The notes beneath the pieces are model-generated. The model made no database searches. It worked only from the letters and a program-made list of their open reading frames with translations, and was not told the DNA's origin. The position numbers and the translations under genes were made by a program. From an uncultured Acidobacteriota bacterium (GTDB lineage: Bacteria; Acidobacteriota; UBA6911), in NCBI GenBank assembly GCA_963827655.1, contig CAWHCF010000052.1:96001-160000 (forward strand): DNA of 64,000 bases, written 5' to 3'. Positions 5,892 to 63,658 of the stretch are shown here, one piece after another; the stretch's first letter is position 1; each line of letters opens with the position of its first letter.

Positions 5892-5956
5892 CAACGTCTT
5901 GCTCGGTTTCGCCGCATCAACCACGAAGACGCGATGCAGAGCCTCCAAATAAGCCC

Positions 5957-5984
5957 TTGACAATCTACGGTCCATGTTTAAGAT
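5957..5984 (+). promoter_or_regulatory. Putative sigma70 promoter of the leu leader/leuA
   Basis: TTGACA(5957)-N16-TAAGAT(5979). Confidence 0.55.
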
Positions 5985-6037
5985 AACGTGACCGCGTTAA
6001 GAGGGCGAGAAGCGCCCTTGGGGGGACAAAGTCGACG

Positions 6038-6145
6038 ATGACTCTGCAACAGGAATTCCGGCTTTTTCAGATTGCATTACACCGGTCGTTCCTTCTTCGC
6101 ACCCTCATCCTTACTGGCCCTTTGCTCGGCCCGTCGTCCCTTTAG
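6038..6145 (+). CDS. Leucine-rich leader peptide (attenuator) upstream of leuA
   Basis: 35-aa ORF MTLQQEFRLFQIALHRSFLLRTLILTGPLLGPSSL with 10 Leu (five CTT, one TTA); preceded by GGGGGGA; ends 66 nt before leuA. Confidence 0.65.
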   Translation: MTLQQEFRLFQIALHRSFLLRTLILTGPLLGPSSL

Positions 6146-6211
6146 GACTGCCCGGCAAAGGGATCACAGACAGTCTCAGCCCTGTTCATCAGAAAGGTAA
6201 AGGAGCAAACA

Positions 6212-7765
6212 ATGGACAACCGCGTTTATATCTTCGACACCACCCTGAGAGATGGCGAGCAGTCTCCGGGCGCCAGCATGAACATCGAGGAAAAACTCCT
6301 GTTGGCGCGCCAGCTCGAGAGACTGCGCGTGGACGTCATTGAAGCCGGGTTCCCGATCTCTTCCGACGGCGACTTCGAATCGGTAAAGCGAATAGCCGAG
6401 GAGGTTCGCACCGTGACCATTGCCGGCCTCGCCCGCGCCGGCAAGTTGGATATCGATCGGTGCTGGGAGGCGGTACAGTACGCCGCCAAACCAAGAATCC
6501 ACACTTTCATCGCTACTTCCGACATTCATTTAAAGTACAAGCTCAAGAAAACACGAGAGCAGGTTCTGCAGGATGCCCGGGAGGCTGTCCGGTACGCTCG
6601 AACCCTTTGCCAGGACGTTGAGTTCTCGGCCGAGGATGCCTCCCGCACCGATCTGGATTATCTCTGTTCGGTGCTGGAAGCGGTCATAGACGCAGGAGCA
6701 CGCGTGGTGAACATTCCCGATACGGTGGGCTATGCCATCCCGACGGAGTTTGGCGAGAGAATCAAGTACCTTCGCGCCCGCGTGAAAAACATCGACCGCG
6801 CGATCATGTCCGTGCACTGCCACAACGACCTGGGGCTGGCGGTAGCCAACTCGCTGATCGCTATCCAGAACGGCGCCCGCCAGGTGGAATGCACAATTAA
6901 CGGAATCGGAGAACGGGCAGGGAATGCGTCGCTGGAAGAGATTGTGATGGCGCTCCAGACCCGCCGGGATTTCTTCGGCCTGGATATGGAGGTAAACACT
7001 CAGGAGATCTACCCGGCGAGTCGACTGCTCACGAATCTCACCGGCTTGATGGTTCAATCGAACAAAGCGATCGTGGGCCGCAACGCCTTCGCTCATGAGG
7101 CCGGGATTCACCAGGACGGTGTCATCAAAGAGAAATCGACGTACGAGATCATGCGTCCGGAAGCCGTGGGAATCAAAGAGAGCAAACTGATCATGGGGAA
7201 ACATTCCGGCCGCCATGCGTTGAAATTGAAATACCAGGAACTCGGTTTTGAACTGGGCAACGCCGAACTGGAGAAGGCTTATGTCCTGTTCAAGAAGGTG
7301 GCGGACAAGAAGAAGGAAGTCTATGACGATGATCTGATCGTGATCGTCCGCGATGGGCTCCGGATATTCCCGGAGGCTTACAAGTTGAAGTACATTCAAT
7401 CGAGCGGCGGCAATCAAATCATTGCTACGGCGACCATCGTTCTTGAAAGGGACGGCCAGACCTTCCGCGACTCTGCGATCGGCGACGGGCCGGTCGACGC
7501 GGCGCTCAAGGTGATCGATCGCATCACGGGAATCGAGGGGCGGCTCATGGATTACAACGTCCACAGCGTGACGCGCGGGAAGGACGCGGTGGGCGAGGTA
7601 TTCATGAAGGTCGACTTCGGAAAGGTTTCGTTTATCGGCAAAGCGGCCAGCACTGATGTGGTCGATGCCAGCGCGCGCGCATACCTGAACGCGATAAACA
7701 AGATGGCCCACTACCAGATGGCGGTGGCGGAACACAGGGAAGCGGCCGAGTCGGCCGGAGCGTAA
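6212..7765 (+). CDS. leuA: 2-isopropylmalate synthase
   Basis: [44 protein letters not shown]; C-terminal regulatory domain GDGPVDA. Confidence 0.97.
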
Positions 7766-16990: not shown

Positions 16991-18110
16991 ATGCTCGAGG
17001 AATTGCGCGACAAGGTTAATGCCATCGATGAAAAAATAGAACAGATTCGAGGTTATCTTTGATGCGGAGCACAAGCGCGGCGAGATCCTTGAGCTCGAAA
17101 AACAGGTGGCAAGACCGGAATTCTGGGACAACCAGGAAGAGGCGCAGGCAACACTGCAGAATCGGCGGCGGCTCGAGGAGGACGTGGAACTAGACACCAA
17201 ACTGGCGCGCGACATTTCCGACCTTCACGCCCTTGTCGAACTGGCGGTGGAAGGTGAAGATGTCCTTAACGACCTTGCCGTCGAAGTGGATCGGCTGGAG
17301 AAAGAAGCCCAGCACACCGAGATCCGGATCTTGCTGGCCGGTGAGCACGATCGCTCCAATGCCATCATTACCATACATCCCGGCGCCGGCGGAACCGAAT
17401 CCCAGGATTGGGCCGAAATGCTGGTGCGTATGTACCTGAGGTGGGCGGAGCGGTCGGGATACGTCACCGAAATGTTCGACTACCAGTATGGAGACGAAGC
17501 CGGTATCAAATCGGTGACCTTTCTCGTGAAAGGAGAGCTTGCCTACGGCAACCTGACGGCGGAGAGCGGCGTGCACCGCCTGGTCAGGATTTCCCCGTTT
17601 GATGCCGCTGCGCGTCGCCACACGAGCTTCGCTTCAGTCTTCGTATATCCCGAAATTGACGACAAGATCGACGTGCAGATCGAAGAGAAAGACCTGCGTA
17701 TCGATACTTATCGATCTTCCGGCGCGGGGGGCCAGCATGTGAATGTCACCGACTCGGCGGTTCGAATCACTCACATTCCCACCGGGATCGTGGTCCACTG
17801 TCAGAACGAGCGGTCTCAGATCCGCAATAGGGAAATGGCCCGCAAGATTCTGCGCGCCCGGCTCTACGATCTGGAGCTGGAAAAGAAACGCCAGCAATTG
17901 CAGGAGGTCGAGGACACGAAACTCGATATCGCATGGGGAAGTCAGATTCGATCCTATGTGCTGCATCCATATCGAATGGTTAAAGATCATCGCACGAAGT
18001 ACGAGACCTCCGACACTGACCGGGTCCTCGACGGCGAGATCGACGAATTCATTTATCAGTACCTGGTCCATCGCGGCGTCAAGAAGCGCAACGGCGGAGG
18101 CAGGGCTTAG
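16991..18110 (+). CDS. prfB: Peptide chain release factor 2 (programmed +1 frameshift at 17057-17062)
   Basis: ATG 16991 after AGGAGG; MLEEL..IRGYL then CTT TGA; the +1 frame continues into the SPF and GGQ motifs. Confidence 0.97.
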
Positions 18111-42156: not shown

Positions 42157-42421
42157 GGCATTTCATTTTTTGATTGCAATTTCGCGGGCCGTGACTGAAA
42201 ATTCCCCTTTGTCCAATGACTACTCTCGCCATTTACTCGCTTGATTTCCCGCAAGCATTGCTCGCAACCGCTCGGCAAGTTTCGTGAGATCCATGTCTGC
42301 GTCTACACTCTCTACAAGCCGATGACGAGTCGACAGGATCATAGTTATTCCCGATGAACCGGCGAGCCCTCGGATTTCAACCGATAGAAAACTGTCCGTG
42401 CCCTATTCGAAGGAGAGCCTC

Positions 42422-43318
42422 ATGAAGGAGAAAGACGAAGGCCGGCCTTCCGGTCTGCGGCGAGTACTGGAAGACGAGCATCTGAGAGGTGATGATGATC
42501 CTCCGGCCTCTGCGACTCAATCGTTAGACACGCTCAAAGAGGGATACTCATGGGTGCGCTCGCTGGCGGCACGCTATCCTGGGTGGCACCTGGCCTCGGT
42601 CGACGGATTTCCGTTCACATTGCCCGTCAAGGGACTTTCCGAGTCACGAGTCTGCCTGATCAGTCTCGGAGGTGTCTATCGCAAGGGGCAAAAACCGTTT
42701 AACACCTCACCCGGCGTAGTTCCACCTCAGCTTCGCAACATGCGGTTTCGCGATCGAGGAGATTGGTCTGTTCGCGAGATTCCCGTCGACACCGACCCGA
42801 CGGAGCTCGAGATCGCCCATGCGCACTACGATCACAGCGACGCCGATGAAGACATCAACTGCGTGTTTCCGCTGGCTCGCCTGCGCGAATTGGAAGTGGA
42901 AGGTTTCATCGGTGAATGCGCCGACGTTCATTACGGCATGATGGGCTATATTCCCGAGGTGAAGCTCGTGCTTCAGACCGCCAGCGACGACATCATCCCG
43001 CGCTTGCAGCATCACAAGGTCGACGCGGTGGTAATAAGCGGAGGCTGCGAGCTAAGCCACCAGACCGCAGGCCTGATCCAAAGGGAGATCGAATCCGCCG
43101 GAATCCCCACGGTCGGAATCTCCGTATGCCAGGACATCACCTACCAGCTTCAAGTGCCGCGCGCAGCGGTCCTGGGATTTCCCCTGGGCAATCCCTTCGG
43201 CGCCGCGATGGATGCCACGATGCAATCTCGAGTTCTAAGAGACGGGCTCTCCCTCTTGCCGGGCGTTCAAACCCCCGGGGAAATCGTGAGGCTCCCCTAC
43301 GATTGGGTCAAAATGTGA
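42422..43318 (+). CDS. Glycine/betaine/proline reductase selenoprotein B (PrdB/GrdB)-family protein, cysteine variant
   Basis: HAHYDHSDADEDINCVFPLARLREL..G.IG, VDAVVISGGCELSHQTAGLIQREIESAGIPTV, VPRA..FPLGNPFG. Confidence 0.8.
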   Translation: MKEKDEGRPSGLRRVLEDEHLRGDDDPPASATQSLDTLKEGYSWVRSLAARYPGWHLASVDGFPFTLPVKGLSESRVCLISLGGVYRKGQKPFNTSPGVVPPQLRNMRFRDRGDWSVREIPVDTDPTELEIAHAHYDHSDADEDINCVFPLARLRELEVEGFIGECADVHYGMMGYIPEVKLVLQTASDDIIPRLQHHKVDAVVISGGCELSHQTAGLIQREIESAGIPTVGISVCQDITYQLQVPRAAVLGFPLGNPFGAAMDATMQSRVLRDGLSLLPGVQTPGEIVRLPYDWVKM

Positions 43319-43327
43319 GACGACCAA

Positions 43328-43904
43328 TCACGGTGCCGGCGGGCTTGGCGGCGGCGGCGGAAAATCCGTTGGCGGCGCGGGCGGATACGGTAGCGGCGGA
43401 GGTCCGCCGATGGCTCCGGGCTTGCGCTTTTCAAAGATCGCTACCCCGAGCGCGCCGCCCAGCATGCCTACGATGCTGTAGACGATCAGCGTAAAGAAAC
43501 CGCCCACAATGATGAAGAAAATTCCCGGCCCGCCCCCGTCGGCAAAAATCGAACCCAGGGCATCCTTCGTCTCCGGCGGAAGATTCGGTACTTGTTCGAG
43601 AGCTTCGCGCAAAGGCTCCATGAAATTCACGCCCATCCCTCTCATCATCAAATGCATCGGTATGGCAAAGAGGACATCGACGATGGCTCCGATAGCCCCG
43701 GTCAGCAGTCCCGAGGCCGACACCGCGACCGAGCGTGACCGCAACGGGAGAACTCTTCACATACAGGTTGGCAGCCAGCATGGTTCCACCAATCACCCAT
43801 GCGCAGCAAAGACAATTGAGCGCGCTCACGATCGGTATCGCCGACAGGATTCCTAATGTGACCCCTCCGATCAACGCCGGCTTGAGCATTCCTTCCTGGT
43901 TCAT
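43328..43904 (-). CDS. Membrane protein with Pro-rich tail (split by a +1 frameshift near 43711)
   Basis: PALIGG..LSAIP..NCLCCAW (frame 1) continues as GLLTGAIGA.. (frame 2); an extra G in CTC GGG A CTG. Confidence 0.75.
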
Positions 43905-44434
43905 GAGGCACCTCCTTGAGTGTGGGGAGCATTGACATGCGCCTGCTTCCAGGGAGCTTCACGCAGAAATTCCGAAACGCCCGGCACCAGCAGGAGCGAG
44001 AGCATGGCGCCGAAGAGGAAGCCCGTCGCGAAACGGCTTGGAGGTCCATTGGTCCAGACCCCGGTGAATGGAAGCATTACATCCAGCATGAGTGGAAGCG
44101 TCATCCCGACGACAACGGATCTGCGGGTCGAAGGGCGTACGAGTTTCTCAAAGGCCCTCCGATGAAACAGCGCGCCAGCAAAGAGTCCGAGATAAATTCC
44201 CGAACACCTCTGGCAGACCGCCCAGGGATACTCCCACAGAGTGAACGATCTTTCAGGAAGCTGATGGCAAACGGGAGCGAACACCAGATAGACGAACCCG
44301 GCCGCGGTCGAGCGACCTTGGGCCCTGCCGATCGGGGCCGCCAGGATCAATCCACAGACCAGCCCCCACAGCGCGATGAGAAAAAGCCGCGGCAGGTTGG
44401 CGCTCACCAAACGCATGAAAGATATCAGAGTCAT
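43901..44434 (-). CDS. DUF2085-type membrane protein
   Basis: CHQLPERSF and CQRCSGIYLG motifs, RFATGFLFG. Confidence 0.8.
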   Translation of the reverse strand: MTLISFMRLVSANLPRLFLIALWGLVCGLILAAPIGRAQGRSTAAGFVYLVFAPVCHQLPERSFTLWEYPWAVCQRCSGIYLGLFAGALFHRRAFEKLVRPSTRRSVVVGMTLPLMLDVMLPFTGVWTNGPPSRFATGFLFGAMLSLLLVPGVSEFLREAPWKQAHVNAPHTQGGAS

Positions 44435-44572
44435 GTCACCTGGTTTTGTGTGTCGGCGCGATCAGGCTGCGCCATTATAACCAAACGGCTCGACAATGCC
44501 AGCGTCGCGTTGCTTCGTTTGGCAGGCATTGCACGAGGGACCCCAACAAAACCGCGAAACTTTTTCTGCCGG

Positions 44573-44589
44573 CTGGCATCTCTCTTGCA
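44573..44589 (+). promoter_or_regulatory. Putative sigma54 (-24/-12) promoter
   Basis: CTGGCATCTCTCTTGCA matches YTGGCA-N6-TTGCW with exact GG-N10-GC spacing. Confidence 0.6.
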
Positions 44590-44677
44590 TCGGCAAAGTT
44601 CCATGGTTAGGACCGCAAGATTTGGTGTTAACAGCGAGTGCTTATCCACTATCTTGTGTTAATCATCGAAATAAACC

Positions 44678-44706
44678 TTGACAACTTTTTGTGATTCACT
44701 TATACA
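44678..44706 (+). promoter_or_regulatory. Putative sigma70 promoter
   Basis: TTGACA-N17-TATACA just upstream of the ATP-grasp operon. Confidence 0.55.
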
Positions 44707-44725
44707 CAAGCAAATGCGAGGGCGG

Positions 44726-45748
44726 ATGCAAATTGGATTGACGTACAACATGAAACGCGGAGCATCCGATGAAGCTCAGGACCCTCCAAGTAGTCGCGTT
44801 GAGGTTCAAGCCGAGTGGGATGATGCGGAAACCATCGAAGCAGTTCAACGCGCCCTCGCCCAACGCCACGACGTAGTTCTCATTCACGCAACTGAAAACC
44901 TCTACGACATTCTTCGCGACCGCCGTCCGGACATTGTCTTCAACATAGCTGAAGGCGAGTTCGGTCCTTGTCGCGAAGGACACGTTCCGTCGATTCTCGA
45001 GTATCTGAATATTCCTTACACGGCGAGCGACCCGCTTGCGCTCAATACGTGCCTGGACAAGGCTCGCACCAAAGAGATCCTCGCGTTTCACGGGTTACCC
45101 ACCGCGCGCTTCCGAGTCGTTTCGGAGAAGAGCTTCTCCTTCAACAGTCTTCACTATCCCTTGGTGGTGAAGCCGCTGTATGAGGGATCGAGCATCGGCA
45201 TCCGAAACGATTCTCTGGTGCGAACCCGGCAGGACATGCGTGAACGGGTTTCGTGGCTGCTGGATCGGTACAACGAACCGGCCCTGGTCGAGGAGTACCT
45301 TGGCGGCAGGGAATTCACCGTGGCGATTCTCGGCAATGGCGAGAGCGCGCGGGTCCTACCCATCATAGAAATCAAACTTGATTCTCTGCCCAGGGGTGTC
45401 AATCCAATCTACTCCTTCGAAGCCAAGTGGATTTGGGACAACAGCAGCAAACCGCTGGACATTTTTGAATGCCCGGCGCGATTGGATGCTGACCTGCAAG
45501 CCGAGATCGAGCGTATCTGCCTGAAAGCCTATCGCCTGCTTCGATGCCGCGATTGGTGCCGGGTCGATGTGCGCCTGGATTCCGAAAACCGTCCTCATAT
45601 CCTGGAACTCAATCCGCTTCCGGGCATTCTTCCTCGCCCCGAAAGCAATTCCTGTTTCCCGAAAGCGGCCCGGGCAGCGGGGTTGACGTTCGATCAGCTT
45701 ATCAATACGGTTCTCGATCTGGCTTGCCAGCGTTACGGATTAGGGTGA
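44726..45748 (+). CDS. D-Ala-D-Ala ligase-like ATP-grasp enzyme 1
   Basis: VKPLYEGSSIGI, EEYLGGREFTV, RVDVR, LELNPLPG; lacks the N-terminal GGxSxE motif of true Ddl. Confidence 0.88.
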   Translation: MQIGLTYNMKRGASDEAQDPPSSRVEVQAEWDDAETIEAVQRALAQRHDVVLIHATENLYDILRDRRPDIVFNIAEGEFGPCREGHVPSILEYLNIPYTASDPLALNTCLDKARTKEILAFHGLPTARFRVVSEKSFSFNSLHYPLVVKPLYEGSSIGIRNDSLVRTRQDMRERVSWLLDRYNEPALVEEYLGGREFTVAILGNGESARVLPIIEIKLDSLPRGVNPIYSFEAKWIWDNSSKPLDIFECPARLDADLQAEIERICLKAYRLLRCRDWCRVDVRLDSENRPHILELNPLPGILPRPESNSCFPKAARAAGLTFDQLINTVLDLACQRYGLG

Positions 45749-46788
45749 TGGGCCGATACGACTGCGTTGTACTGTTCAACGAAGCTACGATTGAAGAAAT
45801 CGAGGGCTCGCAGGAAAAGACGTACCCCTCGACGGTTCTGCGCGAAGAAGTAACCGCGATCGAGGAAGTCCTCCGCGAAGGGGGATTTAATCCTTACGTT
45901 TTCGCGGTCGAGAGTTTTTCCAAAGAATTCGTTCAGACCCTCTCGAAGCTCTCTCCCAAGTTTGTCTTCAACCTCTGTGAGCAGCTCAACGGAAAACCTG
46001 AGCTCGAGATGTGCGTGGCCGGGCTTCTGGACCTCATGGCAATACCGTACACGGGATCCGGGCCGCTCACGCTGGGATTGGCTCTGAGCAAACATCAGGT
46101 CAAACCGATGCTGCGCGCCGCCGGCATCGCCAGCGCAAGAGGCTATGTGCTTGCCCGCGGCCAGAAACCTGATCGTCGTTGGGCGCGCTTCCCGGTCATC
46201 GTCAAGCCGGCGCACGAGGACGGCAGCCTCGGAATCAACTCCAGTTCGGTTTGTTACGATTTTGCGCAACTCGAAAAACAAGCCGCGTACATCCATGAGA
46301 TTTACGTCCAGGAGGCCCTGATAGAAGAGTATCTGGACGGTAGAGAGTTTAATGTCTCTGTCCTGGGGGATCGCGCGCCTGAGGTTCTTGCCATTTCGGA
46401 AATCGATTTCAGCGGCATGCCGGAGGATGAACCCAAGATTGTCAGCTATCGGGGCAAGTGGGACGAGGAAAGCCCGATGTATCGAGGCACGGTGCCAATC
46501 TGCCCCGCCATCCTTTCCAAGCGCTTCGAGAATCGCATCAAGGACATCGCGCTGCGCAGTTACAAGTGTGTGGGCTGCCGCGACTACGCGCGTATTGATA
46601 TGCGCACGGATGCGGAGGGGCGGCTCCACGTCTTAGAGGTAAATCCCAATCCGGACATTTCACCCGTGGCAGGTTTCGCGCGCGCAGCCAAGGTGGCGGG
46701 TTACTCCTACTCGGACATCATACTGCGGATCAGTCAATTTGCCATCGAGCGAGGTGCAACCATCGCATCAACCGTGTATGCGTTCTAG
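45748..46788 (+). CDS. D-Ala-D-Ala ligase-like ATP-grasp enzyme 2
   Basis: VKPAHEDGSLGI, EEYLDGREFNV, ARIDMR, LEVNPNPD; TGATG overlap with gene 1. Confidence 0.88.
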   Translation: MGRYDCVVLFNEATIEEIEGSQEKTYPSTVLREEVTAIEEVLREGGFNPYVFAVESFSKEFVQTLSKLSPKFVFNLCEQLNGKPELEMCVAGLLDLMAIPYTGSGPLTLGLALSKHQVKPMLRAAGIASARGYVLARGQKPDRRWARFPVIVKPAHEDGSLGINSSSVCYDFAQLEKQAAYIHEIYVQEALIEEYLDGREFNVSVLGDRAPEVLAISEIDFSGMPEDEPKIVSYRGKWDEESPMYRGTVPICPAILSKRFENRIKDIALRSYKCVGCRDYARIDMRTDAEGRLHVLEVNPNPDISPVAGFARAAKVAGYSYSDIILRISQFAIERGATIASTVYAF

Positions 46789-47281
46789 TCGCCAGCGGCC
46801 AATCGCGATCAGGCCGCTGACCTCCCTGGATCGACCTGCTGTTTCGGAGATCGTCACGCTGGTCGGAAACTTCAATCAGGCCGAAATCGACTGTGCGCTG
46901 GAATTGATCGACATCTATCTCCGGGATGTCGGCCAGCGCGACTACAGAGTGGTGGTGGCCGAAGATTCCGGACCTCTCGTACAGTCTTATGCCTGCTGGG
47001 GTCCCACTCCGCTCACTCGCGGCACCTATGACCTCTACTGGATTGCAACACACCCGAATGCTCAGGGAAAAGGGTTTGGCCGCGCGCTGATGTCTTTCGT
47101 GGAGGTCAGCGTGGAACACGAAGGCGGCCGGCTCCTGGTCGTAGAAACATCCTCCAAGGAATCATATGGAAGTACTGCCGCGTTTTATCGAAGCCTCGGG
47201 TATGAACAGGCGTCGCGCATCCGAGACTTCTATGACATGGGCGACGACAAGTTGACTTTTGTGAAGCGATTTCCCCGGTAA
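46778..47281 (+). CDS. GNAT family N-acetyltransferase
   Basis: DLYWIATHPNAQGKGFGRALM (acetyl-CoA motif A), VETSS, FYRSLGY. Confidence 0.9.
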   Translation: MRSSRQRPIAIRPLTSLDRPAVSEIVTLVGNFNQAEIDCALELIDIYLRDVGQRDYRVVVAEDSGPLVQSYACWGPTPLTRGTYDLYWIATHPNAQGKGFGRALMSFVEVSVEHEGGRLLVVETSSKESYGSTAAFYRSLGYEQASRIRDFYDMGDDKLTFVKRFPR

Positions 47282-47296
47282 GGAGACCGTACGACA

Positions 47297-48382
47297 ATGG
47301 AACAATGGATGCTTGATCTCAGGAACAGCGTCACCAAGGGAGAGACTGTCAGCGAAGACTATGACGCCGACATAGGAAGCATCAACGAGGTGCGGAAGGT
47401 CTATCCCATGCGGATCCCACGTTACTACTACAACCTGATCCAGGAAAAGGGCGATCCTATCTGGCTGCAGTCGGTGCCTGCCGCCCAGGAATCGCAAGAC
47501 GAACAAGCGCCGGAAGACCCTCTCCACGAGGACGCAGACAGTCCGGTTCCGCGTCTCACCCATCGCTATCCCGATCGCGTTCTCTTTCTAATCACCGATC
47601 GCTGTCCCATGTACTGCCGGTTCTGCACACGCAAGCGCATGGTCGGTCGCGCCAGTGACATTACGGAAAAGACGATCGAAATGGGAATCGAGTATATTCG
47701 CCGACATCCGGAAATTCGGGACGTCCTGCTCTCGGGAGGCGATCCGTTGATGGTCAGCGACGCCAAGCTCGAGCATATCGTCTCCAGCCTGCGCGCGATT
47801 CCGCACCTTCAAGTCATTCGTATCGGTACGAAATTTCCCTGCGTTCTACCCAGCCGGATCACGGATAACCTTTGCAACATGCTGAAGAAGTATCATCCGA
47901 TCTATGTGAATACCCACTTCAATCATCCGCGAGAAATCACGCCGGAAGCAAAGGAGGCCTGCGAGCGGCTGGTCAACGCCGGCATTCCTGTGGGTTGTCA
48001 AACCGTGCTCATGAAGGGAGTCAACGATGATCCGGCGGTCATGAAGGATTTGATGCACAAGCTGCTCATGATGCGCGTGCGCCCCTATTATCTTTACCAG
48101 GCCGACCTGACGCGCGGAACCAATCACTTCAGAACCCGCGTCGAAGTGGGATTGCAGATCATTCAAGCCTTGCGCGGCCACACTACCGGTTTTGCCGTTC
48201 CTCAGTTCGTCATCGACGCTCCCGGCGGCGGGGGAAAGATACCGCTGATGCCGGAGTATGTTCAGAAGTTCGACGAGAAGGAAATCGTCCTGAAGAACTT
48301 CGAGGGTAAAGAGTACCGCTACCCCCAGGTCAGTGACGAGTACGTCAGGGACGCGCGCGAAATGGAATTGATCAACTTCTAG
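47297..48382 (+). CDS. KamA family radical SAM/PLP aminomutase (lysine 2,3-aminomutase-like)
   Basis: HRYPDRVL, CPMYCRFCTR, SGGDPL, HFNHPRE, YQADL, IDAPGGGGKIP (PLP lysine). Confidence 0.92.
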   Translation: MEQWMLDLRNSVTKGETVSEDYDADIGSINEVRKVYPMRIPRYYYNLIQEKGDPIWLQSVPAAQESQDEQAPEDPLHEDADSPVPRLTHRYPDRVLFLITDRCPMYCRFCTRKRMVGRASDITEKTIEMGIEYIRRHPEIRDVLLSGGDPLMVSDAKLEHIVSSLRAIPHLQVIRIGTKFPCVLPSRITDNLCNMLKKYHPIYVNTHFNHPREITPEAKEACERLVNAGIPVGCQTVLMKGVNDDPAVMKDLMHKLLMMRVRPYYLYQADLTRGTNHFRTRVEVGLQIIQALRGHTTGFAVPQFVIDAPGGGGKIPLMPEYVQKFDEKEIVLKNFEGKEYRYPQVSDEYVRDAREMELINF

Positions 48383-48615
48383 GGTTCGCGCAGAAATAAG
48401 TTCGCATTCTGCTGCAGGCCCCCAGGCCCGCTGGCGAGGCGCGAGCGACGATGCGTACCCGGCGCGGTACGTGAGGAGCGAGCAACAAAGCCAGCGGGCC
48501 TGCGGGCCGCAGCCCGAAGGGGCGCGATCCTAGCGTAATTGGCTGACAGAAAACCGGTTCATGATTGACCGCCGACTCTCGCGCCAGAATGTGAAGTTAT
48601 TTGTGCGCGAGCCCT
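48381..48615. mobile_element. MITE copy 3
   Basis: Same TIRs; TA-GGG...CCC-TA flanks; the left junction forms the TAG stop of the KamA gene. Confidence 0.88.
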
Positions 48616-48627
48616 AGGGGGGGTCGG

Positions 48628-49407
48628 ATGAAAGTTGCGGCCGTCATCCCGGCCCGGATGCAATCGGCCAGGTTGCCTGGGAAGCCGCTTCAACTGATCT
48701 CGGGCGTTCCCATGATTCTTCGAGTCCTTGACCGGGCCCGGGCCTGCCCGGAGTTGCATCGGATCATAGTGGCGACGGACAGCGAAGAAATTCTTCGCGT
48801 GGTCGAGGAGAATGGGGGCGAAGCATGGATGACTTCTCCTGAGCACCGGACGGGGTCCGATCGCGTCGCTGAAGTTGCCGAAAGGCTCGACGAGGACCTG
48901 ATCCTGAATCTGCAAGGGGATGAGCCGCTCCTTCCCATCTCTACCGTTCGCGCTCTGGTAAACCATGGGCTCGCGCGCGAAGGATTGACCATGGCTACCG
49001 CGGTAATTCCACTTCGCTGGGAGCGCGATGTGGTCAATCCCAACATTGTGAAAGCGGTGGGCACGCAAGAGGGAAGGGCTCTCTATTTTTCCCGGTACCC
49101 GATTCCTTATTGCAAGTCGAAGCCGCTGGATCTGACCGCAGGTCCGCATTCGCAGCGCGCCTGCGCGGGTTACTTCAAGCATATCGGAATCTATCTGTAT
49201 CGCCGGGACTTCCTGCTGAAGTATATAAGGCTGGCTCCCACTCCTCTCGAGATCGCGGAATCACTCGAACAGCTTCGCATCCTGGAAAACGGATATCCGA
49301 TCGATCTGGTCACGGTCGCCGAGGATTCGGTGAGCGTGGACACGGCGGAAGATCTCGCGATTGTTGAGGCTCTGATCAAGAGCTGCGAGAAAAACTCGAC
49401 CGCCTAA
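48628..49407 (+). CDS. kdsB: 3-deoxy-manno-octulosonate cytidylyltransferase
   Basis: IPARMQSARLPGKPL, GSDR, QGDEP, ALYFSR, HIGIY, ESLEQLR. Confidence 0.96.
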   Translation: MKVAAVIPARMQSARLPGKPLQLISGVPMILRVLDRARACPELHRIIVATDSEEILRVVEENGGEAWMTSPEHRTGSDRVAEVAERLDEDLILNLQGDEPLLPISTVRALVNHGLAREGLTMATAVIPLRWERDVVNPNIVKAVGTQEGRALYFSRYPIPYCKSKPLDLTAGPHSQRACAGYFKHIGIYLYRRDFLLKYIRLAPTPLEIAESLEQLRILENGYPIDLVTVAEDSVSVDTAEDLAIVEALIKSCEKNSTA

Positions 49408-52192: not shown

Positions 52193-53620
52193 CTATCGTT
52201 TGCTCGCACCCTGCGCAGGTTGTACGCTGGTTTTTCCTCCGCGAAGGGCAATCTGCCCCTGGCGCGTGAAATTGATCGATTCGCCCAGTATGCGCACCGC
52301 TTCCTGCGGCGCATGGAATCCGTTGGAATTCTCTGCCTCGACGAAATCGAGATAGAACTGCGCCTTGCGCTGAAACTGCTGGGCCTCCGCAAGCTCCGTA
52401 TCCGACTTGGCCGCAGCTTTCGCGGCTTTTAGGTCGCTGATCAAATCCATCAATGCGTCCATCGCCAGGTTGCGCAATTTGAAAGTCCGCTCCTGAATCG
52501 CCTCGACTCGCGCCTTCAACTCTTCTTCGGGCCATCTGTGGCAGGTCTGGCACGAACGATTGATATTCAAAAGAGGCGAGCGGACATGATGGTCGCTGAT
52601 TTTGAGGCCGCCTTCCCGCTTGTAAGGCATGTGACAGTCGGCGCAGGCCACGCCCGAACGCGAGTGAATGCCCTGATTCCAGAGCTCGAACTCGGGGTGT
52701 TGAGCCTTGAGCACGGGAGCTCCTGTGTCGGCATGAACCCAGTCGCGGAATTTCTCCTCCTCGTAGTAGGCCAGGATGTCATCTATCTTGAGACCCTTGG
52801 ACCAGGGATAGACCAGCCGTTTTTCAGGACCCCTGAAATAATATTCGACGTGGCATTGACCGCATACGAAGGTGCGCATCTCCTGGCGGGTGGCCTGCTG
52901 GTTGACGTCGTAGTTCTGAACGCCCTGGGAACCCCTCAAGGCGCGAATCCCTTCGATGAATCCCGGACGAGTGACGCGAAGCTGCATGGTCGAGGGGTCG
53001 TGACAGTCGATGCAGGCGATGGGGTGCGAAACCAGCTTGCGCGCTTCGAAATAGGGCATTTGATTCATCCGCTCGAAGCCTTTGATAAGGTCGCCGCCTC
53101 CAAGAGTCTTGTAAGGCACGTAGACCGAAGCGTGGCACTGCACGCAGGCGCCGGGTTGTTTGGCGGCTTGCTGACGCTCGGTGAATGTCTGGTCGTCGAG
53201 CATGTAAGCATGGCCTCGCTCTTCGCGAAAATCTTTGGAGAATGCGTATCCCGCCCACATGATTTTCAGTCGCGGGTCTTCTTCGATCCTTGATTGCGCG
53301 ACCACCGAGCGTGGATCTGCCTTGGTAGGAGTAAGCGGCAGCGCTTCGCTGCCGCCGAATCGCGTTCGCACCTGATCCACGGTACGCCGGTAGTCGTCGT
53401 ACTGGAGTGGAAAATTCTTGCCCCACACCTCCGGATCCTGAGTTTCGTCGGTAAGTTCGACGACGCGATAGAATGGATTTCGGCTCTCCTGTTTTCGCTC
53501 GAATATATTCACGAGCATGGCCGCGCCCCCCAGGGCGGCGACCGCGGCTATGATGGTGGCGGCGAGAACGAAGCGGCGATTTCGTTTTCCTGGGTTCGTC
53601 TCCTGATTCGGTTCAGTCAT
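52193..53620 (-). CDS. nrfA: Ammonia-forming cytochrome c nitrite reductase, CxxCH-type
   Basis: Five heme motifs (CVQCH, CIDCH, CGQCH, CADCH, CQTCH), RGHAY, CHVEYYF, KAQHPEFE, ENSNGFH. Confidence 0.94.
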   Translation of the reverse strand: MTEPNQETNPGKRNRRFVLAATIIAAVAALGGAAMLVNIFERKQESRNPFYRVVELTDETQDPEVWGKNFPLQYDDYRRTVDQVRTRFGGSEALPLTPTKADPRSVVAQSRIEEDPRLKIMWAGYAFSKDFREERGHAYMLDDQTFTERQQAAKQPGACVQCHASVYVPYKTLGGGDLIKGFERMNQMPYFEARKLVSHPIACIDCHDPSTMQLRVTRPGFIEGIRALRGSQGVQNYDVNQQATRQEMRTFVCGQCHVEYYFRGPEKRLVYPWSKGLKIDDILAYYEEEKFRDWVHADTGAPVLKAQHPEFELWNQGIHSRSGVACADCHMPYKREGGLKISDHHVRSPLLNINRSCQTCHRWPEEELKARVEAIQERTFKLRNLAMDALMDLISDLKAAKAAAKSDTELAEAQQFQRKAQFYLDFVEAENSNGFHAPQEAVRILGESINFTRQGQIALRGGKTSVQPAQGASKR

Positions 53621-53651
53621 TGTTTCCTCCCCTGGAGCCTGGCGGTTTGCG

Positions 53652-54110
53652 CTAGTGCAAATGACCGACGGAAAGGTGGCAGCTCACGCACGAAGGCTTT
53701 TCTTCTTCACGGTCTGCGTGCAGGCCTTCAAGCGCGACGACAACCTCCTGGTGGCATTTGCGGCAAGCCTGCTCAGTGATTTCGCGGCTGTGCGGCTTGA
53801 TCTGGATATTGTCTTCGTAGCGGCCCGTCGTGAAATAAAATGAATGCCCGAGTCCGTTGCGGGCCTTCGTCGCGTACTTCCCGAGAAATCCTGCCGGCGT
53901 GTGGCAGTCATTACACACCGCGGCCGCGCGGTGCGACGACTTGAGCCAGCCGTCGTACTGCTCGCGCATCACGTGACAGTTGGCGCAGGCGGCAGCGTTA
54001 TCCGTGAGGTAAGACCAGCCCTGCGCATAGGCGAACGTGTAAGCGCAGATTCCAACCGCAAAGCCGATTGCGGCGCCCAGAACTATGCCTTGAACAGCGC
54101 GCAGCCTCAT
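53652..54110 (-). CDS. nrfH: Tetraheme quinol dehydrogenase NrfH
   Basis: N-terminal TM helix; CANCHVM, CNDCH, CRKCH, CVSCH; ATG 54110 after GGGAGGG. Confidence 0.93.
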   Translation of the reverse strand: MRLRAVQGIVLGAAIGFAVGICAYTFAYAQGWSYLTDNAAACANCHVMREQYDGWLKSSHRAAAVCNDCHTPAGFLGKYATKARNGLGHSFYFTTGRYEDNIQIKPHSREITEQACRKCHQEVVVALEGLHADREEEKPSCVSCHLSVGHLH

Positions 54111-54122
54111 CCGCCCTCCCTT

Positions 54123-54179
54123 AGGGTTCGCGCAGAAATAAGTTTCGCATTCTTCTGCAGGCCCCCAGACTCGCTGGCG
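54123..54179. mobile_element. Truncated MITE (one TIR plus ~35 bp)
   Basis: AGGGTTCGCGCAGAAATAAGTTTCGCATTCTTCTGCAGGCCCCCAG; second TIR absent. Confidence 0.8.
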
Positions 54180-54356
54180 GCGCACATCGGCGCGGAGCGA
54201 GACCCGCGCGTGCGGGCGGATGCGAAATTGCGCGAACAGGTCTTCATTGTTCATCAGGTTGTAGAACGGCGTTCTCGCGTAGATGCGCGGCGTGGGAAGA
54301 ACTTGAAAGAAAGTTGTGTGATCGTTGTCGGCAGGGTTGCCGGTGTCCAATTGCAC
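54180..54356 (-). pseudogene. Internal fragment of an outer-membrane beta-barrel (alginate-export-like) gene
   Basis: GNPADNDHTTFFQVLPTPRIYARTPFYNLMNNEDLFAQ recalled as typical of that family; no start, cut by the MITE. Confidence 0.5.
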
Positions 54357-60246: not shown

Positions 60247-61362
60247 GTGGTGAAAATATTCTTGAGGCAGAAGAAGCTTCTGGACGGAAGGAAGTCGATC
60301 TACCTGGATATGTACCGCCAGGGGCATCGCCGGTATGAATTCCTGAACCTGTACCTTACGGGCAATCGTGACGCCGACAAGGAAACCATGCGGCTGGCCG
60401 AAGCCATTGTGGCCAAGCGAAAGCTCGCTTCCGTGAGCGCCGACCATGACCTGCCAGCGCCATCACGACTTCAGGAAGATTTCGTGGCCTACTGCCGGCG
60501 GCTGGCAGAGGATCAGCAAGCCTACAATACACGGCTCGTCTGGAACAACGCCATTGCCCGACTCGTTTCCTATGCCGGCCCGGTGATAAGCTTTGGCCAA
60601 TTGAGCGAAGATTTCATCAAGGGATTCCGAGAAAATCTGCTCAAAGATCTGAAGCGGAATTCGGCCGCCGTCTACTTCGCAAAAATCAAAACTGCGATCC
60701 TGCGCGCTACCCGCAAGCACATCCTGCCAAGAAACCCGGCGGATGGAATCACGATCCGCACCGAAGAAACCAGCCGAGTGTATCTCACGCTGGCCGACCT
60801 GCGATGCCTTCAAAAAACCGATTGCGAAAACCAGGCCGTCAAAGACGCCTTCCTGTTTTCGGCATTTTCGGGGATGCGGTATTCGGATGTAAAGCGTCTC
60901 ACCTGGGGAAAAATAGAATCCGAAGACAATCGCTGGCGGATCGGATTCGTTCAACAGAAAACGGGGAGTCTGGAATGGCTTCCGCTGTCGGCGGAAGCAG
61001 TTTCCATCCTTCGGCATCAGAAGGATGCCCGGCCTTCCGGCCGGACCGAGAATCCTATCCCGGCCGACGCCGTCTTCAAGCTCCCGGCGCAACAGACCAT
61101 TGACAAGGCGATCAAGCGGTGGGCCGTGAGGGCCGGTCTCGAAAGGCGAATTTCCTTTCATACCGCCCGGCACACATTCGGCACACTCGGCCTGAAGCAC
61201 GGAATTGACATTTACACCATGTCCAAGCTTTTGGGGCACCGCAGCCTGGAAACAACCCAGATCTACGCAAAGGTGGTAGACGAGTCGAAGAGGAAGGCAG
61301 TTGCCCTGTTCCCGACGCTCCATCCGTCGGATTCGAAGCGGAAAAGCAGGAAGGGGAAATAA
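60247..61362 (+). CDS. Tyrosine recombinase/integrase
   Basis: Catalytic R (GMRYSD), K (QQKTG), HxxR (FHTARH), LLGH, Y (TQIYAK); arm-binding N-terminus SIYLDMY. Confidence 0.95.
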   Translation: MVKIFLRQKKLLDGRKSIYLDMYRQGHRRYEFLNLYLTGNRDADKETMRLAEAIVAKRKLASVSADHDLPAPSRLQEDFVAYCRRLAEDQQAYNTRLVWNNAIARLVSYAGPVISFGQLSEDFIKGFRENLLKDLKRNSAAVYFAKIKTAILRATRKHILPRNPADGITIRTEETSRVYLTLADLRCLQKTDCENQAVKDAFLFSAFSGMRYSDVKRLTWGKIESEDNRWRIGFVQQKTGSLEWLPLSAEAVSILRHQKDARPSGRTENPIPADAVFKLPAQQTIDKAIKRWAVRAGLERRISFHTARHTFGTLGLKHGIDIYTMSKLLGHRSLETTQIYAKVVDESKRKAVALFPTLHPSDSKRKSRKGK

Positions 61363-62240
61363 TGAGTCCTAGAGAGAATAGGGATTTTTACCGGGAGAAC
61401 GTCGAGACCCTCAGAAGCGCTTTTCAAGAAATCCTGCACCATCATTTTCTCCTGTTGTCGGCCTTTATTCCGAAAATCGTCGAAACCATCAAGGCAGCGT
61501 TATCCGAATCTCTTTCCGAGGCGTCGGAAGAACGGGGAAAGACAACGCCTGCAATCAACGCCCTTTTGATTCCGGACGCCGAGAATGCGATTTTTTACGA
61601 GACGCCCCGGGCGACGGTAATTTCCTCGATTGACGTGGCCAAGGCCATTGAATTCGATTTCCGATACCTGGAGCAGGGCGATGTTGCCGCGCTCAAAGAC
61701 GTCCTGGACCATCAACAGGAAGCACTTGAGCACCTTATGGTGATGATTCCGCCGCAACTCGGCATTGGCAGGGAAATTCTTGATCCATTTCAGATACGAA
61801 TGAATGCCCTGGTGCAAAATAGCAGGGGGGAGAAGCGCTTCCAGGTTGAATATCTGAAAGCCAAGGAAGATCTCATGCCCACGAATTTGCGTTTGTGGGT
61901 TCATAAGGCGAATGTTGCGCTAGATTATTTGCAGGACAACCCGGCGCCCGTAGCCGTGGTTGATTTGCCGGTTCCAGTATCCCGACCGGAAACAAGACGG
62001 CCGGTTTGGAGCTCGACCGATAATAGTTTTGCAGAATTGATCGTGGAACTTCATAAAAAGGGCTATATCGACGGACAAAGCCCGATGGATGTCCTGGCAG
62101 CGGTCGCCCCGCTGTTTGAAAACGTCAATCCTGACGGACGTACCTTGTGGCAGGGAATTGCCAATCGCGCTCATAAGGGGAATCGATTTGCCTCTATTCC
62201 AGCGGCTCCAAAGCCGAGAAAAAAGGCAAGGTCACGGTAG
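61362..62240 (+). CDS. Hypothetical protein with an RteC-like C-terminal domain
   Basis: TAATG coupling to the integrase; VWSSTDNSFAELIVELHKKGYI resembles the RteC motif. Confidence 0.55.
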   Translation: MSPRENRDFYRENVETLRSAFQEILHHHFLLLSAFIPKIVETIKAALSESLSEASEERGKTTPAINALLIPDAENAIFYETPRATVISSIDVAKAIEFDFRYLEQGDVAALKDVLDHQQEALEHLMVMIPPQLGIGREILDPFQIRMNALVQNSRGEKRFQVEYLKAKEDLMPTNLRLWVHKANVALDYLQDNPAPVAVVDLPVPVSRPETRRPVWSSTDNSFAELIVELHKKGYIDGQSPMDVLAAVAPLFENVNPDGRTLWQGIANRAHKGNRFASIPAAPKPRKKARSR

Positions 62241-62246
62241 AATCAG

Positions 62247-62264
62247 TGACTCAACGTTGAGTCA
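62247..62264. promoter_or_regulatory. Perfect 18-bp palindrome, candidate operator
   Basis: TGACTCAACGTTGAGTCA, ending 65 bp upstream of the excisionase start. Confidence 0.55.
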
Positions 62265-62329
62265 ATTTTGATGGCTACGGTTCTTTGAAATAATTGCGCT
62301 CGGTTAGTTGTTGTTAAGGGGAGCGCAAA

Positions 62330-62617
62330 ATGACAAAGAGCGATTTGGTTGATCTGGACGGCAGGCTCGACAGAATCGAACGGCTCGTCCTGCGCATGGG
62401 CACCCAGGAGTCTGGACCGCTCGACCTGGATGCAGCCGCGAAATATCTCGGCATCTCCAAATCTCACCTTTATCACCTAACAAGCAAAGGCCTGATCGGT
62501 CATTTCAAGCCCGCCGGGAAGAAAATTTACTTCGACAAGGCGGACCTGGATTCGTATCTCAAGCGCAAGCGAGTGATGCCGCCCTGGGAAATCGACCGTG
62601 CTGCGGCAATGAAATAG
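62330..62617 (+). CDS. Excisionase-like helix-turn-helix protein (HTH_17)
   Basis: LDAAAKYLGISKSHLYHLTSKGLIGHFKP.GKKIYF.KADLDSYL. Confidence 0.88.
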   Translation: MTKSDLVDLDGRLDRIERLVLRMGTQESGPLDLDAAAKYLGISKSHLYHLTSKGLIGHFKPAGKKIYFDKADLDSYLKRKRVMPPWEIDRAAAMK

Positions 62618-62890
62618 GAGCCGCTTGCCGGCGGAAAGAGCCCGTTCGGGCGAACCCAGGCAGGCTTCGATATAGCACGCGGTGCGATTCCGACAGATAC
62701 CGGAAGAATTCGTAATCACCGCCATCGCGGCTATCGCAACGGTCGGCAACCACTCCGGTTAATTGCAGCCTGCCCGACGGCCGATGCCTCCACAAGGGGG
62801 GGCATGACTCAGGTTTCAATCCACTCCCGTCCATTTGGAGCGGTAGGGAATGCACGGATCATCCGTCCTATTTTTAGAGGAGTCCGGAAT

Positions 62891-63658
62891 ATGAACAGAT
62901 TGCACACGTCTGACACCCAATCTCCAAATCACGCTTCTTCGACCCGCAAGAGAACCATTTTCTCCATGGGCGGTAAGGGCGGTGTCGGCAAGACCTCCGT
63001 CATGACCGGTCTGGCCGAATGGCTCCACATGAACCAGATCCCCGTCACTCTCCTGGATCTCGACACCGAGAACAAGGCGCGCGGATCGCTGACCCACTTC
63101 TTCGGGGGCCAGGTACCCAAGGTAAACATCCACACCCCGGCAGGCTTGGATGCGTTTATCGATCATCTCGCCGACGGCGCTCCCGTGGTCCTTGCCGACA
63201 TGGGAGCGGGCTCCGGCCAGGTCACCTACGACTGGTTCGATACCATGTACACCGATCTTGCAGACGCGGGAATCGCCTTCACTACGGTCGGAATCGTGAC
63301 CGCCGATCCCGCCAGCGTCGAAAGTGTCCTCTCCTGGGCCGGGCATCTGCAAAGCCGGGTTGCTTACCTTATCGTCGAAAACAGCATCACCGCCTATTGC
63401 GATTTCACTTACTGGCGGGCCACCGCCCAGGCACAGCAGTTCCGCGAGGCCTTTGCGCCCGCCGTCATTCATATCGATTACCGTCTCGCCGAGCTGGAAA
63501 ACGCCGCGCGCAATCACGGCGTTACCCTGGGCAGCGTCGCGGCAAGACGAGCCGACGTGGAGGAACTGCGTAAGGCCTCCATTGTCATGCGGGCCCAAAG
63601 CTACCGGCGACGGATGTTTGCCGAGTTCGACAGGGTGAAGGAGTTGCTGCTGCCATGA
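62891..63658 (+). CDS. ParA/MinD-type P-loop NTPase (MobD/TraA-like accessory protein)
   Basis: Deviant Walker A GGKGGVGKT, DLDTEN, LADMGAG. Confidence 0.75.
   Translation: MNRLHTSDTQSPNHASSTRKRTIFSMGGKGGVGKTSVMTGLAEWLHMNQIPVTLLDLDTENKARGSLTHFFGGQVPKVNIHTPAGLDAFIDHLADGAPVVLADMGAGSGQVTYDWFDTMYTDLADAGIAFTTVGIVTADPASVESVLSWAGHLQSRVAYLIVENSITAYCDFTYWRATAQAQQFREAFAPAVIHIDYRLAELENAARNHGVTLGSVAARRADVEELRKASIVMRAQSYRRRMFAEFDRVKELLLP

Follow-up and report, generated by a model that had tools for sequence, protein, structure and literature searches.

Two Ddl-like ATP-grasp ligases, a GNAT acyltransferase and a lysine-type aminomutase form a conserved operon, a candidate pathway to an N-acetylated beta-lysine amide

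What might a bacterium build with two ATP-grasp ligases, an acyltransferase and a radical S-adenosylmethionine (SAM) aminomutase encoded side by side? The question is raised by four genes in a 64,000-nucleotide stretch of DNA, here called the window, from an uncultured Acidobacteriota bacterium (lineage UBA6911; GenBank assembly GCA_963827655.1, contig CAWHCF010000052.1, positions 96,001 to 160,000 of the forward strand). An earlier sequence-only reading had taken them to encode two relatives of the D-alanine--D-alanine (D-Ala-D-Ala) ligase Ddl, named here ligase 1 and ligase 2, a GNAT N-acyltransferase and a KamA-family aminomutase dependent on SAM and pyridoxal phosphate (PLP), and the Pfam assignments agree (Table 1). 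We hold with moderate confidence that the four genes are a self-contained biosynthetic operon, the product of which would be a small cytoplasmic N-acetylated amide built on beta-lysine. The parts belong to known enzyme families; their combination is an orphan pathway.

The four genes all lie on the + strand and overlap or nearly abut. The stop codon of ligase 1 (TGA, 45746-45748) and the start codon of ligase 2 (ATG, 45748-45750) have one A in common (GGGTGATGGGC), the GNAT gene starts at an ATG (46778) and has its first 11 nucleotides in common with ligase 2 (which ends at 46788), and 15 nucleotides separate the end of the GNAT gene (47281) from the start of kamA (47297). These junctions had been described correctly, and the motifs quoted with them (ELNPLPG, EVNPNPD, CPMYCRFC as the CxxxCxxC motif, YQADL and IDAPGGGGKIP) were each found in the translations. 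The operon start had been placed, wrongly, at 44573: translation from there runs into two in-frame stops. The true start is the ATG at 44726, directly preceded by GAGG, and the resulting ligase 1 of 340 residues has the length of most of the 120 homologues among the matches listed.

KamA was compared with lysine 2,3-aminomutase (LAM; PDB 2A5H), which it matched at 400 bits with the two Asp residues (D293, D330) and the PLP Lys (K337) aligned. The CxxxCxxC motif, both Asp residues and the Lys were at least 95% conserved in 64 KamA proteins of the module, in line with the lysine-type specificity proposed earlier. The protein passed the KamA subfamily model TIGR00238 (317, cut-off 199), and its best-scoring NCBIfam model was the AblA equivalog TIGR03820 (478.5 against a cut-off of 525.4, covering profile positions 13-361 of 417); it falls short of this cut-off for want of the last ~56 profile positions. 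The EpmB equivalog gave 236.8 against a cut-off of 369.3, and E. coli EpmB itself matched at 170 bits and 32% identity, far from the score with LAM. KamA is thus, as judged by its specificity residues, a lysine-type aminomutase.

The two ligases share 33% identity with each other, and much about them points at first to Ddl. Both carry the Pfam domain Dala_Dala_lig_C (2e-38 for ligase 1, 2.4e-30 for ligase 2), the best PDB matches of both are Ddl enzymes (E. coli DdlB scoring 121 bits with ligase 1 and 99 bits with ligase 2), source databases name them 'D-alanine-D-alanine ligase', and a homologue in the ESM Atlas gave just generic 'Ddl family' clusters. Even the GNAT has a solved relative, PDB 2R7H (107 bits), deposited under the title 'putative D-alanine N-acetyltransferase'. 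The current annotation would accordingly make the ligases paralogues of the peptidoglycan D-Ala-D-Ala (or D-Ala-D-X) ligases, a reading that we find scarcely credible on the comparisons that follow. Against the NCBIfam Ddl subfamily model NF002378 (cut-off 243) ligase 1 scored 209 and ligase 2 scored 147.8, and both fell far under the cut-offs of all Ddl equivalog and Van models.

For a comparison residue by residue, 81 ligase 1 and 75 ligase 2 sequences were aligned with E. coli DdlA and DdlB (DdlB numbering). The residues for ATP, Mg and the transition state (K97, K144, E180, E187, K215, R255, D257, E270 and N272) were present in 81/81 ligase 1 sequences and in 70-75 of the 75 ligase 2 sequences, which upholds the earlier statement that the ATP-grasp motifs are kept. 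As the catalytic residues are retained in both families, both ligases should be active, and for the same reason two separate ligation steps are plausible. The substrate side is different. The set of residues which we take, from the DdlB literature, to form the D-Ala site (the GGxSxE segment with E15, and H63, S150, Y216, G276, S281 and L282) is complete in neither ligase: H63 is replaced by Glu and Y216 by Trp in every sequence of both families. Ligase 1 retains S150, G276 and S281, with a 4-residue insert in the loop after them, and ligase 2 has G149D, S150A/G, G276D, S281A and L282G across its family. The sequence-only reading had both ligases lacking GGxSxE, which holds for the GG..S part of this N-terminal motif; a conserved A-E does remain in ligase 1 (E30 in 80 of 81 sequences) that may correspond to A-E15 of Ddl in a region of uncertain alignment, and in the same uncertain region S-E occurs near E15 in 57/75 ligase 2 sequences, the ligase 2 of the window not being among them. 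The added acidic residues, H63E in both and, in ligase 2, two Asp in the nucleophile region, suggest cationic substrates.

In a quick maximum-likelihood tree the 81 ligase 1 sequences formed one clade (SH-aLRT 99) and the 75 ligase 2 sequences another (SH-aLRT 98), with E. coli DdlA and DdlB, the tree's only two outgroup sequences, outside both. The genomic context also differs from that of a cell-wall enzyme: no mur or fts gene was found among the window open reading frames (ORFs) scanned, and the ligases are always paired and linked to KamA and GNAT. The module ligases therefore share with Ddl and VanA the fold family and the residues for ATP, Mg and the transition state, and part from them in model scores, substrate residues, clades and gene context; the earlier conclusion that they are not true Ddl enzymes is borne out by the first three of these.

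Close homologues run to thousands. Most are unnamed or go by 'D-Ala-D-Ala ligase', and where an organism is given, in a few cases, it belongs to Acidobacteriota; among 1.84 billion representatives, a full HMMER search placed 1,335 at E<=1e-30. Species-representative genomes scanned with the ligase 1 alignment yielded at least 600 stretches, at least 586 of them confirmed, from which 80 loci were listed. These come from Ignavibacteriota (26), Bacteroidota (12), Thermodesulfobacteriota (8), Gemmatimonadota (5), Acidobacteriota (4), Bacillota (4), Myxococcota (3) and Bathyarchaeota (2). Several candidate phyla add one locus each and some loci are unclassified, a spread in all of about 14 phyla plus Bathyarchaeia. 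The four window proteins were placed on the 80 loci by tblastn, writing A, B, G and K for ligase 1, ligase 2, GNAT and KamA and a prime for the opposite strand. The order ABGK on one strand was found at 62/80 loci, and at 59 of the 70 loci that could be assessed because at least 2.7 kb follow ligase 1. The other 11 assessable loci were ABG (6), KAB' (2), B'AGK (1), AB (1) and A (1), and the 10 loci too short to assess comprised three ABGK cut within kamA at the contig end, five AB, one A and one ABK. The survey thus agrees with the proposal that the four genes are one unit.

The ligases of seven of the eight assessable kamA-less loci (L005, L023, L033, L038, L070, L071 and L077) and of the contig-cut L021 nest among KamA-linked ligases in the tree, and no systematic difference separates the two at the active-site columns. 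From this interspersion and the unchanged active sites, kamA appears to have been lost from the locus several times, without evident change of chemistry. No fifth gene or precursor peptide was shared across lineages when the 1,010 ORFs of the 80 loci were clustered and recurrent or flanking ORFs were searched with Pfam; the recurrent neighbours (RecG, GpsA, PlsY, IspD, QueA and NAD kinase) reflect lineage-specific housekeeping synteny.

A few loci depart from the common arrangement in other ways. In two metagenome-assembled genomes (MAGs) labelled Bathyarchaeia, kamA and ligase 1 are followed by a convergent ligase 2 (L052 2663-5892; L079 6887-10055), and in L052 a different GNAT adjoins the kamA and ligase genes; these two loci reflect either spread across domains or a binning artefact. 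A Wallbacteria MAG has a solitary ligase 1 homologue (L009 8001-9008, 56% identity) with no ligase 2, GNAT or KamA, flanked by an amidohydrolase and a class V aminotransferase.

The place of the acyltransferase was judged from family models and from natural fusions. It belongs to the GNAT superfamily (Pfam Acetyltransf_7 46.4, cut-off 27), and its acyl-CoA loop QGKGxG is conserved (G99 in 65/69 sequences, G101 in 64/69). Since LAM and an acetyltransferase together (AblA/AblB) suffice for the osmolyte N-epsilon-acetyl-beta-lysine, the sequence-only reading had seen in this GNAT the counterpart of AblB. In NCBIfam, a library that presumably includes an AblB model, the protein gave five weak matches at E<=0.01, RimI-like and AAC(6'), none of them to the AblB family. 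The fusions place it elsewhere. The 150 best representatives included 35 tandem double ligases, one KamA-ligase 1, one ligase 1-KamA and one ligase 2-GNAT protein, and Pfam on 19 long representatives upheld the fusions and showed six ligases joined to a GNAT of the Acetyltransf_3 type. In 16 ligase 1-ligase 2 fusions the catalytic K, E, D and N were kept in both halves. Among 33 long relatives of the window GNAT (E<=1e-10), 29 were ligase 2-GNAT proteins in which the gene order was kept, and none was a KamA-GNAT fusion. KamA is hence found with ligase 1, GNAT with ligase 2 and the ligases with each other, which ties the parts together. This pattern suggests a division of labour in which ligase 1 takes up what KamA makes, and ligase 2 with GNAT is a bifunctional unit that acetylates and ligates.

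The same evidence bears on the possibility that two unrelated pairs share the operon, with KamA and GNAT making N-acetyl-beta-lysine and the ligases an unrelated dipeptide. The AblA model gives KamA its best score, two such enzymes are enough for the known osmolyte, and the GNAT gene directly adjoins kamA; what the window has in common with AblA/AblB is indeed a KamA of LAM type, complete in the two Asp residues and the PLP Lys, beside a GNAT. We nevertheless regard this division as quite improbable. KamA lies under the AblA cut-off, the GNAT has no AblB-type match and is the partner of ligase 2, fused to it and never to KamA in the long relatives and remaining with the ligases in 6 kamA-less loci, KamA-ligase 1 fusions exist in both orders, and two extra ligases are present. 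Without an AblB match and with ligase 2 as the partner of GNAT, a description as 'AblA/AblB plus two ligases' is the wrong partition of the operon.

Taken as one pathway, the operon may work as follows. KamA would convert L-lysine to beta-lysine, its residues being observed and its activity predicted from them. An ATP-grasp ligase makes one amide bond through an acyl-phosphate intermediate, and ligases 1 and 2, with the Ddl fold and re-tooled substrate pockets, would each form one such bond; the invariant new Asp residues of ligase 2 suggest a cationic, amine-type nucleophile. GNAT, functionally paired with ligase 2, would N-acylate, and probably acetylate, one amino group. Most likely this would yield a compound resembling a di- or tripeptide, made from beta-lysine and N-acetylated; the sequence-only reading had proposed a beta-lysyl di/tripeptide, a polymer or a cell-envelope modification, likewise as a prediction. 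The nearest parallel in design is the Ngg/AsnO pathway, attributed to Sagot et al. (2010), in which the GNAT/ATP-grasp protein Ngg reportedly makes N-acetylglutaminylglutamine amide (NAGGN), an N-acetylated dipeptide solute. In both systems a GNAT is joined to an ATP-grasp enzyme, here for a putative N-acetylated dipeptide-type solute, and here too the two are often in one polypeptide (the 29 of 33 long GNAT relatives), a likeness to Ngg in architecture only; unlike Ngg, which was compared by description only, the present ATP-grasp enzymes are of Ddl type, and the operon has no amidotransferase, an extra ligase and a supply of beta-lysine. The overall logic resembles, by this analogy, NAGGN synthesis plus AblA. 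No account of the gene set or its product appeared in the titles and abstract openings of the papers that full-text searches listed; the amidoligase survey of Iyer et al. (2009), which lay beyond that coverage, may predict the neighbourhood.

What would such a compound be for? Beta-lysine contains the 1,4-diaminobutane skeleton of putrescine and is in effect a carboxymethyl-putrescine. At four related loci from MAGs of 'Deltaproteobacteria'/Thermodesulfobacteriota (L005, L021, L023 and L033; Table 1), genes for SpeY (a deoxyhypusine-synthase homologue), agmatinase (SpeB) and a pyruvoyl arginine decarboxylase (ArgDC) precede the ligases on the same strand. Behind the ligases comes a GNAT or a methyltransferase, and no kamA occurs in the available stretch (L021 ends soon after ligase 2); consecutive ORFs of the homospermidine/ligase operon of L023 overlap by 4 nucleotides each. 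SpeY-SpeB-ADC gene clusters make homospermidine, as shown in a 2026 paper that mentions no ATP-grasp enzymes or ligases (PMC13625781). At these four loci such a cluster thus shares an operon with ligase 1, ligase 2 and a GNAT or methyltransferase; in the window the trio is absent. RecJ was seen upstream in L033, as also in the KamA-containing Planctomycetota locus L030.

A further link is to deacetylation. In P0422, a long relative of the module GNAT, an HDAC-family domain and a module-type GNAT form one protein, and in a Desulfuromonas MAG (L031, 5927-7690, - strand) an HDAC-family amidohydrolase lies divergent from the adjoining ligase 1; it is 58% identical to the first 574 residues of P0422, and its N-terminal part is GNAT-like. 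These HDAC-like proteins hint at a deacetylation counterpart to the module.

The sequence-only reading had lacked the polyamine link that these related loci show. The putrescine skeleton within beta-lysine and the homospermidine and deacetylase links make a polyamine-like role as likely as that of an osmolyte: the product would be either a compatible solute or a cation that acts like a polyamine. A bolder form of the idea, tentative and in our view rather doubtful, is that the operon makes a beta-lysine-based polycation of a new class, replacing polyamines or grafted onto them, for which N-acetylated oligo-beta-lysine or a beta-lysyl/aminoacyl-homospermidine conjugate would be candidates. Its control would lie in an acetylation/deacetylation switch between GNAT and the HDAC-like enzyme, and, if it were true, more than a dozen phyla of anaerobes would share an unrecognised branch of polyamine physiology fed by a radical SAM mutase.

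Several observations weigh against a small amide built on beta-lysine. What is observed is gene structure, residues, co-conservation and fusions; the product and its role are predicted, and the substrates and the order of steps are guesses. The gene for KamA is missing at 8 of the 70 assessable loci (6 ABG, 1 AB, 1 A), and beta-lysine may therefore come from elsewhere or be non-obligatory. The ligase tree has two Ddl sequences only as its outgroup, and the polyamine link comes from four related loci and the deacetylase link from one locus and one protein. The flanks of the loci showed no transporter, hydrolase or osmotic-stress gene conserved along with the module. Lastly, ligase 1 identity across phyla is 47-62%, high for a small-molecule pathway and also fitting a macromolecular substrate.

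The last point opens the alternative that the ligases join beta-lysine or a polyamine to carboxylate groups on a protein or an envelope precursor and that GNAT caps the adduct. The target might be, for example, a translation factor or ribosomal protein, and the system an ATP-grasp analogue of the beta-lysylation of EF-P by EpmA/EpmB or of RimK/TTL-type tagging. Besides the unusual conservation of ligase 1, the module always lies amid housekeeping genes (RecG, RecJ, PriA, kdsB, pyrG, pyrD) and is accompanied by no export or degradation genes. The KamA and deoxyhypusine-synthase families include modifiers of EF-P (elongation factor P) and of initiation factor 5A (IF5A), and KamA and a deoxyhypusine-synthase homologue are the alternative partners here; the GNAT and HDAC-like partners are also compatible with protein chemistry. 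As in EpmA/EpmB, a KamA-family mutase would feed beta-lysine to a ligase. That ligase is here an ATP-grasp enzyme and not a LysRS paralogue, however, and KamA is on the LAM/AblA branch, not that of EpmB. No conserved candidate target gene lies in the neighbourhood, and the nearest solved relatives of the ligases, the Ddl enzymes, use free amino acids. SpeY-SpeB-ADC, moreover, is a demonstrated pathway to homospermidine (PMC13625781) and not a hypusination system. Weighing the two sides, we consider attachment to a macromolecule unlikely. A linkage to EF-P in particular was rejected, as tblastn found no efp homologue in any of the 80 loci (E<=1e-4) and no match to E. coli EF-P in the window; efp, epmA and lysine-fermentation genes were likewise absent from the window ORFs scanned, as the earlier reading had said of these and of mur genes.

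A specialised metabolite is very improbable. It could be an antibiotic-like beta-lysine compound, a ribosomally synthesised and post-translationally modified peptide of the microviridin kind, or an element of anti-phage defence; what may speak for it is a likeness of two ATP-grasp ligases and a GNAT to microviridin clusters, and of beta-lysine chains with a GNAT resistance enzyme to streptothricin. The loci have no conserved precursor peptide, transporter, non-ribosomal peptide synthetase or immunity gene, the proteins are highly conserved in a core syntenic context, and the ligases are of Ddl type. None of the four proteins had a PADLOC match (E<=0.001), and a defence system was rejected on this ground.

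Upstream of the operon lies a putative control region (Table 1). An inverted repeat, CAAGAT (44616-44621) and ATCTTG (44651-44656), stands 5' of a promoter-like TTGACA-17-TATACA at 44678-44706 (-35 at 44678-44683, -10 at 44701-44706). When the window is aligned with three acidobacterial loci (L001-L003), neither the repeat nor the two promoter blocks vary. This site was missing from the output of a generic promoter scan, which reported a single + strand site, 44628-44655, and no terminator within the operon. Rfam gave nothing at gathering score in the whole window, with a single chance-level match (E 0.64) in 43800-48800, and a riboswitch or leader RNA was rejected on that result.

Table 1. 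Genes and putative control region of the window operon (window positions), and related loci in which polyamine genes precede the ligases (positions within each locus).
Feature	Coordinates	Strand	Length	Family or content
Putative upstream control region	44616..44706	+		inverted repeat, then -35/-10
Ligase 1, Ddl-like ATP-grasp ligase	44726..45748	+	340 aa	Pfam Dala_Dala_lig_C
Ligase 2, Ddl-like ATP-grasp ligase	45748..46788	+	346 aa	Pfam Dala_Dala_lig_C
GNAT N-acyltransferase	46778..47281	+	167 aa	Pfam Acetyltransf_7, Acetyltransf_1
Short-form KamA-family radical SAM/PLP lysine 2,3-aminomutase	47297..48382	+	361 aa	Pfam Radical_SAM + LAM_C
Locus L005	4962-10573			SpeY-SpeB-ArgDC + ligases
Locus L021	5455-10072			SpeY-SpeB-ArgDC + ligases
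Locus L023	2837-7449			SpeY-SpeB-ArgDC + ligases
Locus L033	5395-10583			SpeY-SpeB-ArgDC + ligases

The rest of the window is core acidobacterial chromosome, upstream of the operon with arg, leu, lipA, lnt, prfB, lpt, rpoN, hpf and phosphotransferase system genes, then msbA, gmk, coaBC, era, a uracil-DNA glycosylase gene, priA and a cation diffusion facilitator transporter gene, followed by the operon and, downstream, kdsB, pyrG, rpiA, nrfHA and a SulP transporter gene. The nrfA/nrfH-type cytochrome c nitrite reductase pair (52196-54356, - strand) fits an anaerobic or microaerobic lifestyle, which suits an oxygen-sensitive KamA. A PrdB/GrdB-like ORF lies 5' of the operon in the window (42398-43318, + strand) and in L001, the closest acidobacterial locus (5655-6605); it scored 161 against the TIGR04483 cut-off of 300, minus-strand membrane-protein genes stand between it and the operon, and reading TGA as selenocysteine brought out nothing notable. 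The gene for release factor 2, prfB (16992-18107, + strand), has the classical programmed +1 frameshift (ATG 16992, CTT TGA 17057-17062), its long ORF matching the prfB profile from position 31 onward only. At 60247-63655, ORFs that match no family come after a tyrosine recombinase, possibly the border of a mobile element.

The module is widespread, in Acidobacteriota, Ignavibacteriota, Bacteroidota, Thermodesulfobacteriota, Gemmatimonadota and other phyla, and thousands of database proteins called 'D-alanine--D-alanine ligase' belong to it, a name that the evidence indicates is wrong. The fusion pattern provides a concrete hypothesis that can be tested stepwise, and the operons shared with homospermidine synthesis suggest that beta-lysine and polyamine biology are connected in a way so far unexplored. 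As the module sits among core genes, its product is probably a common yet undescribed metabolite of anaerobic soil and sediment microbes.

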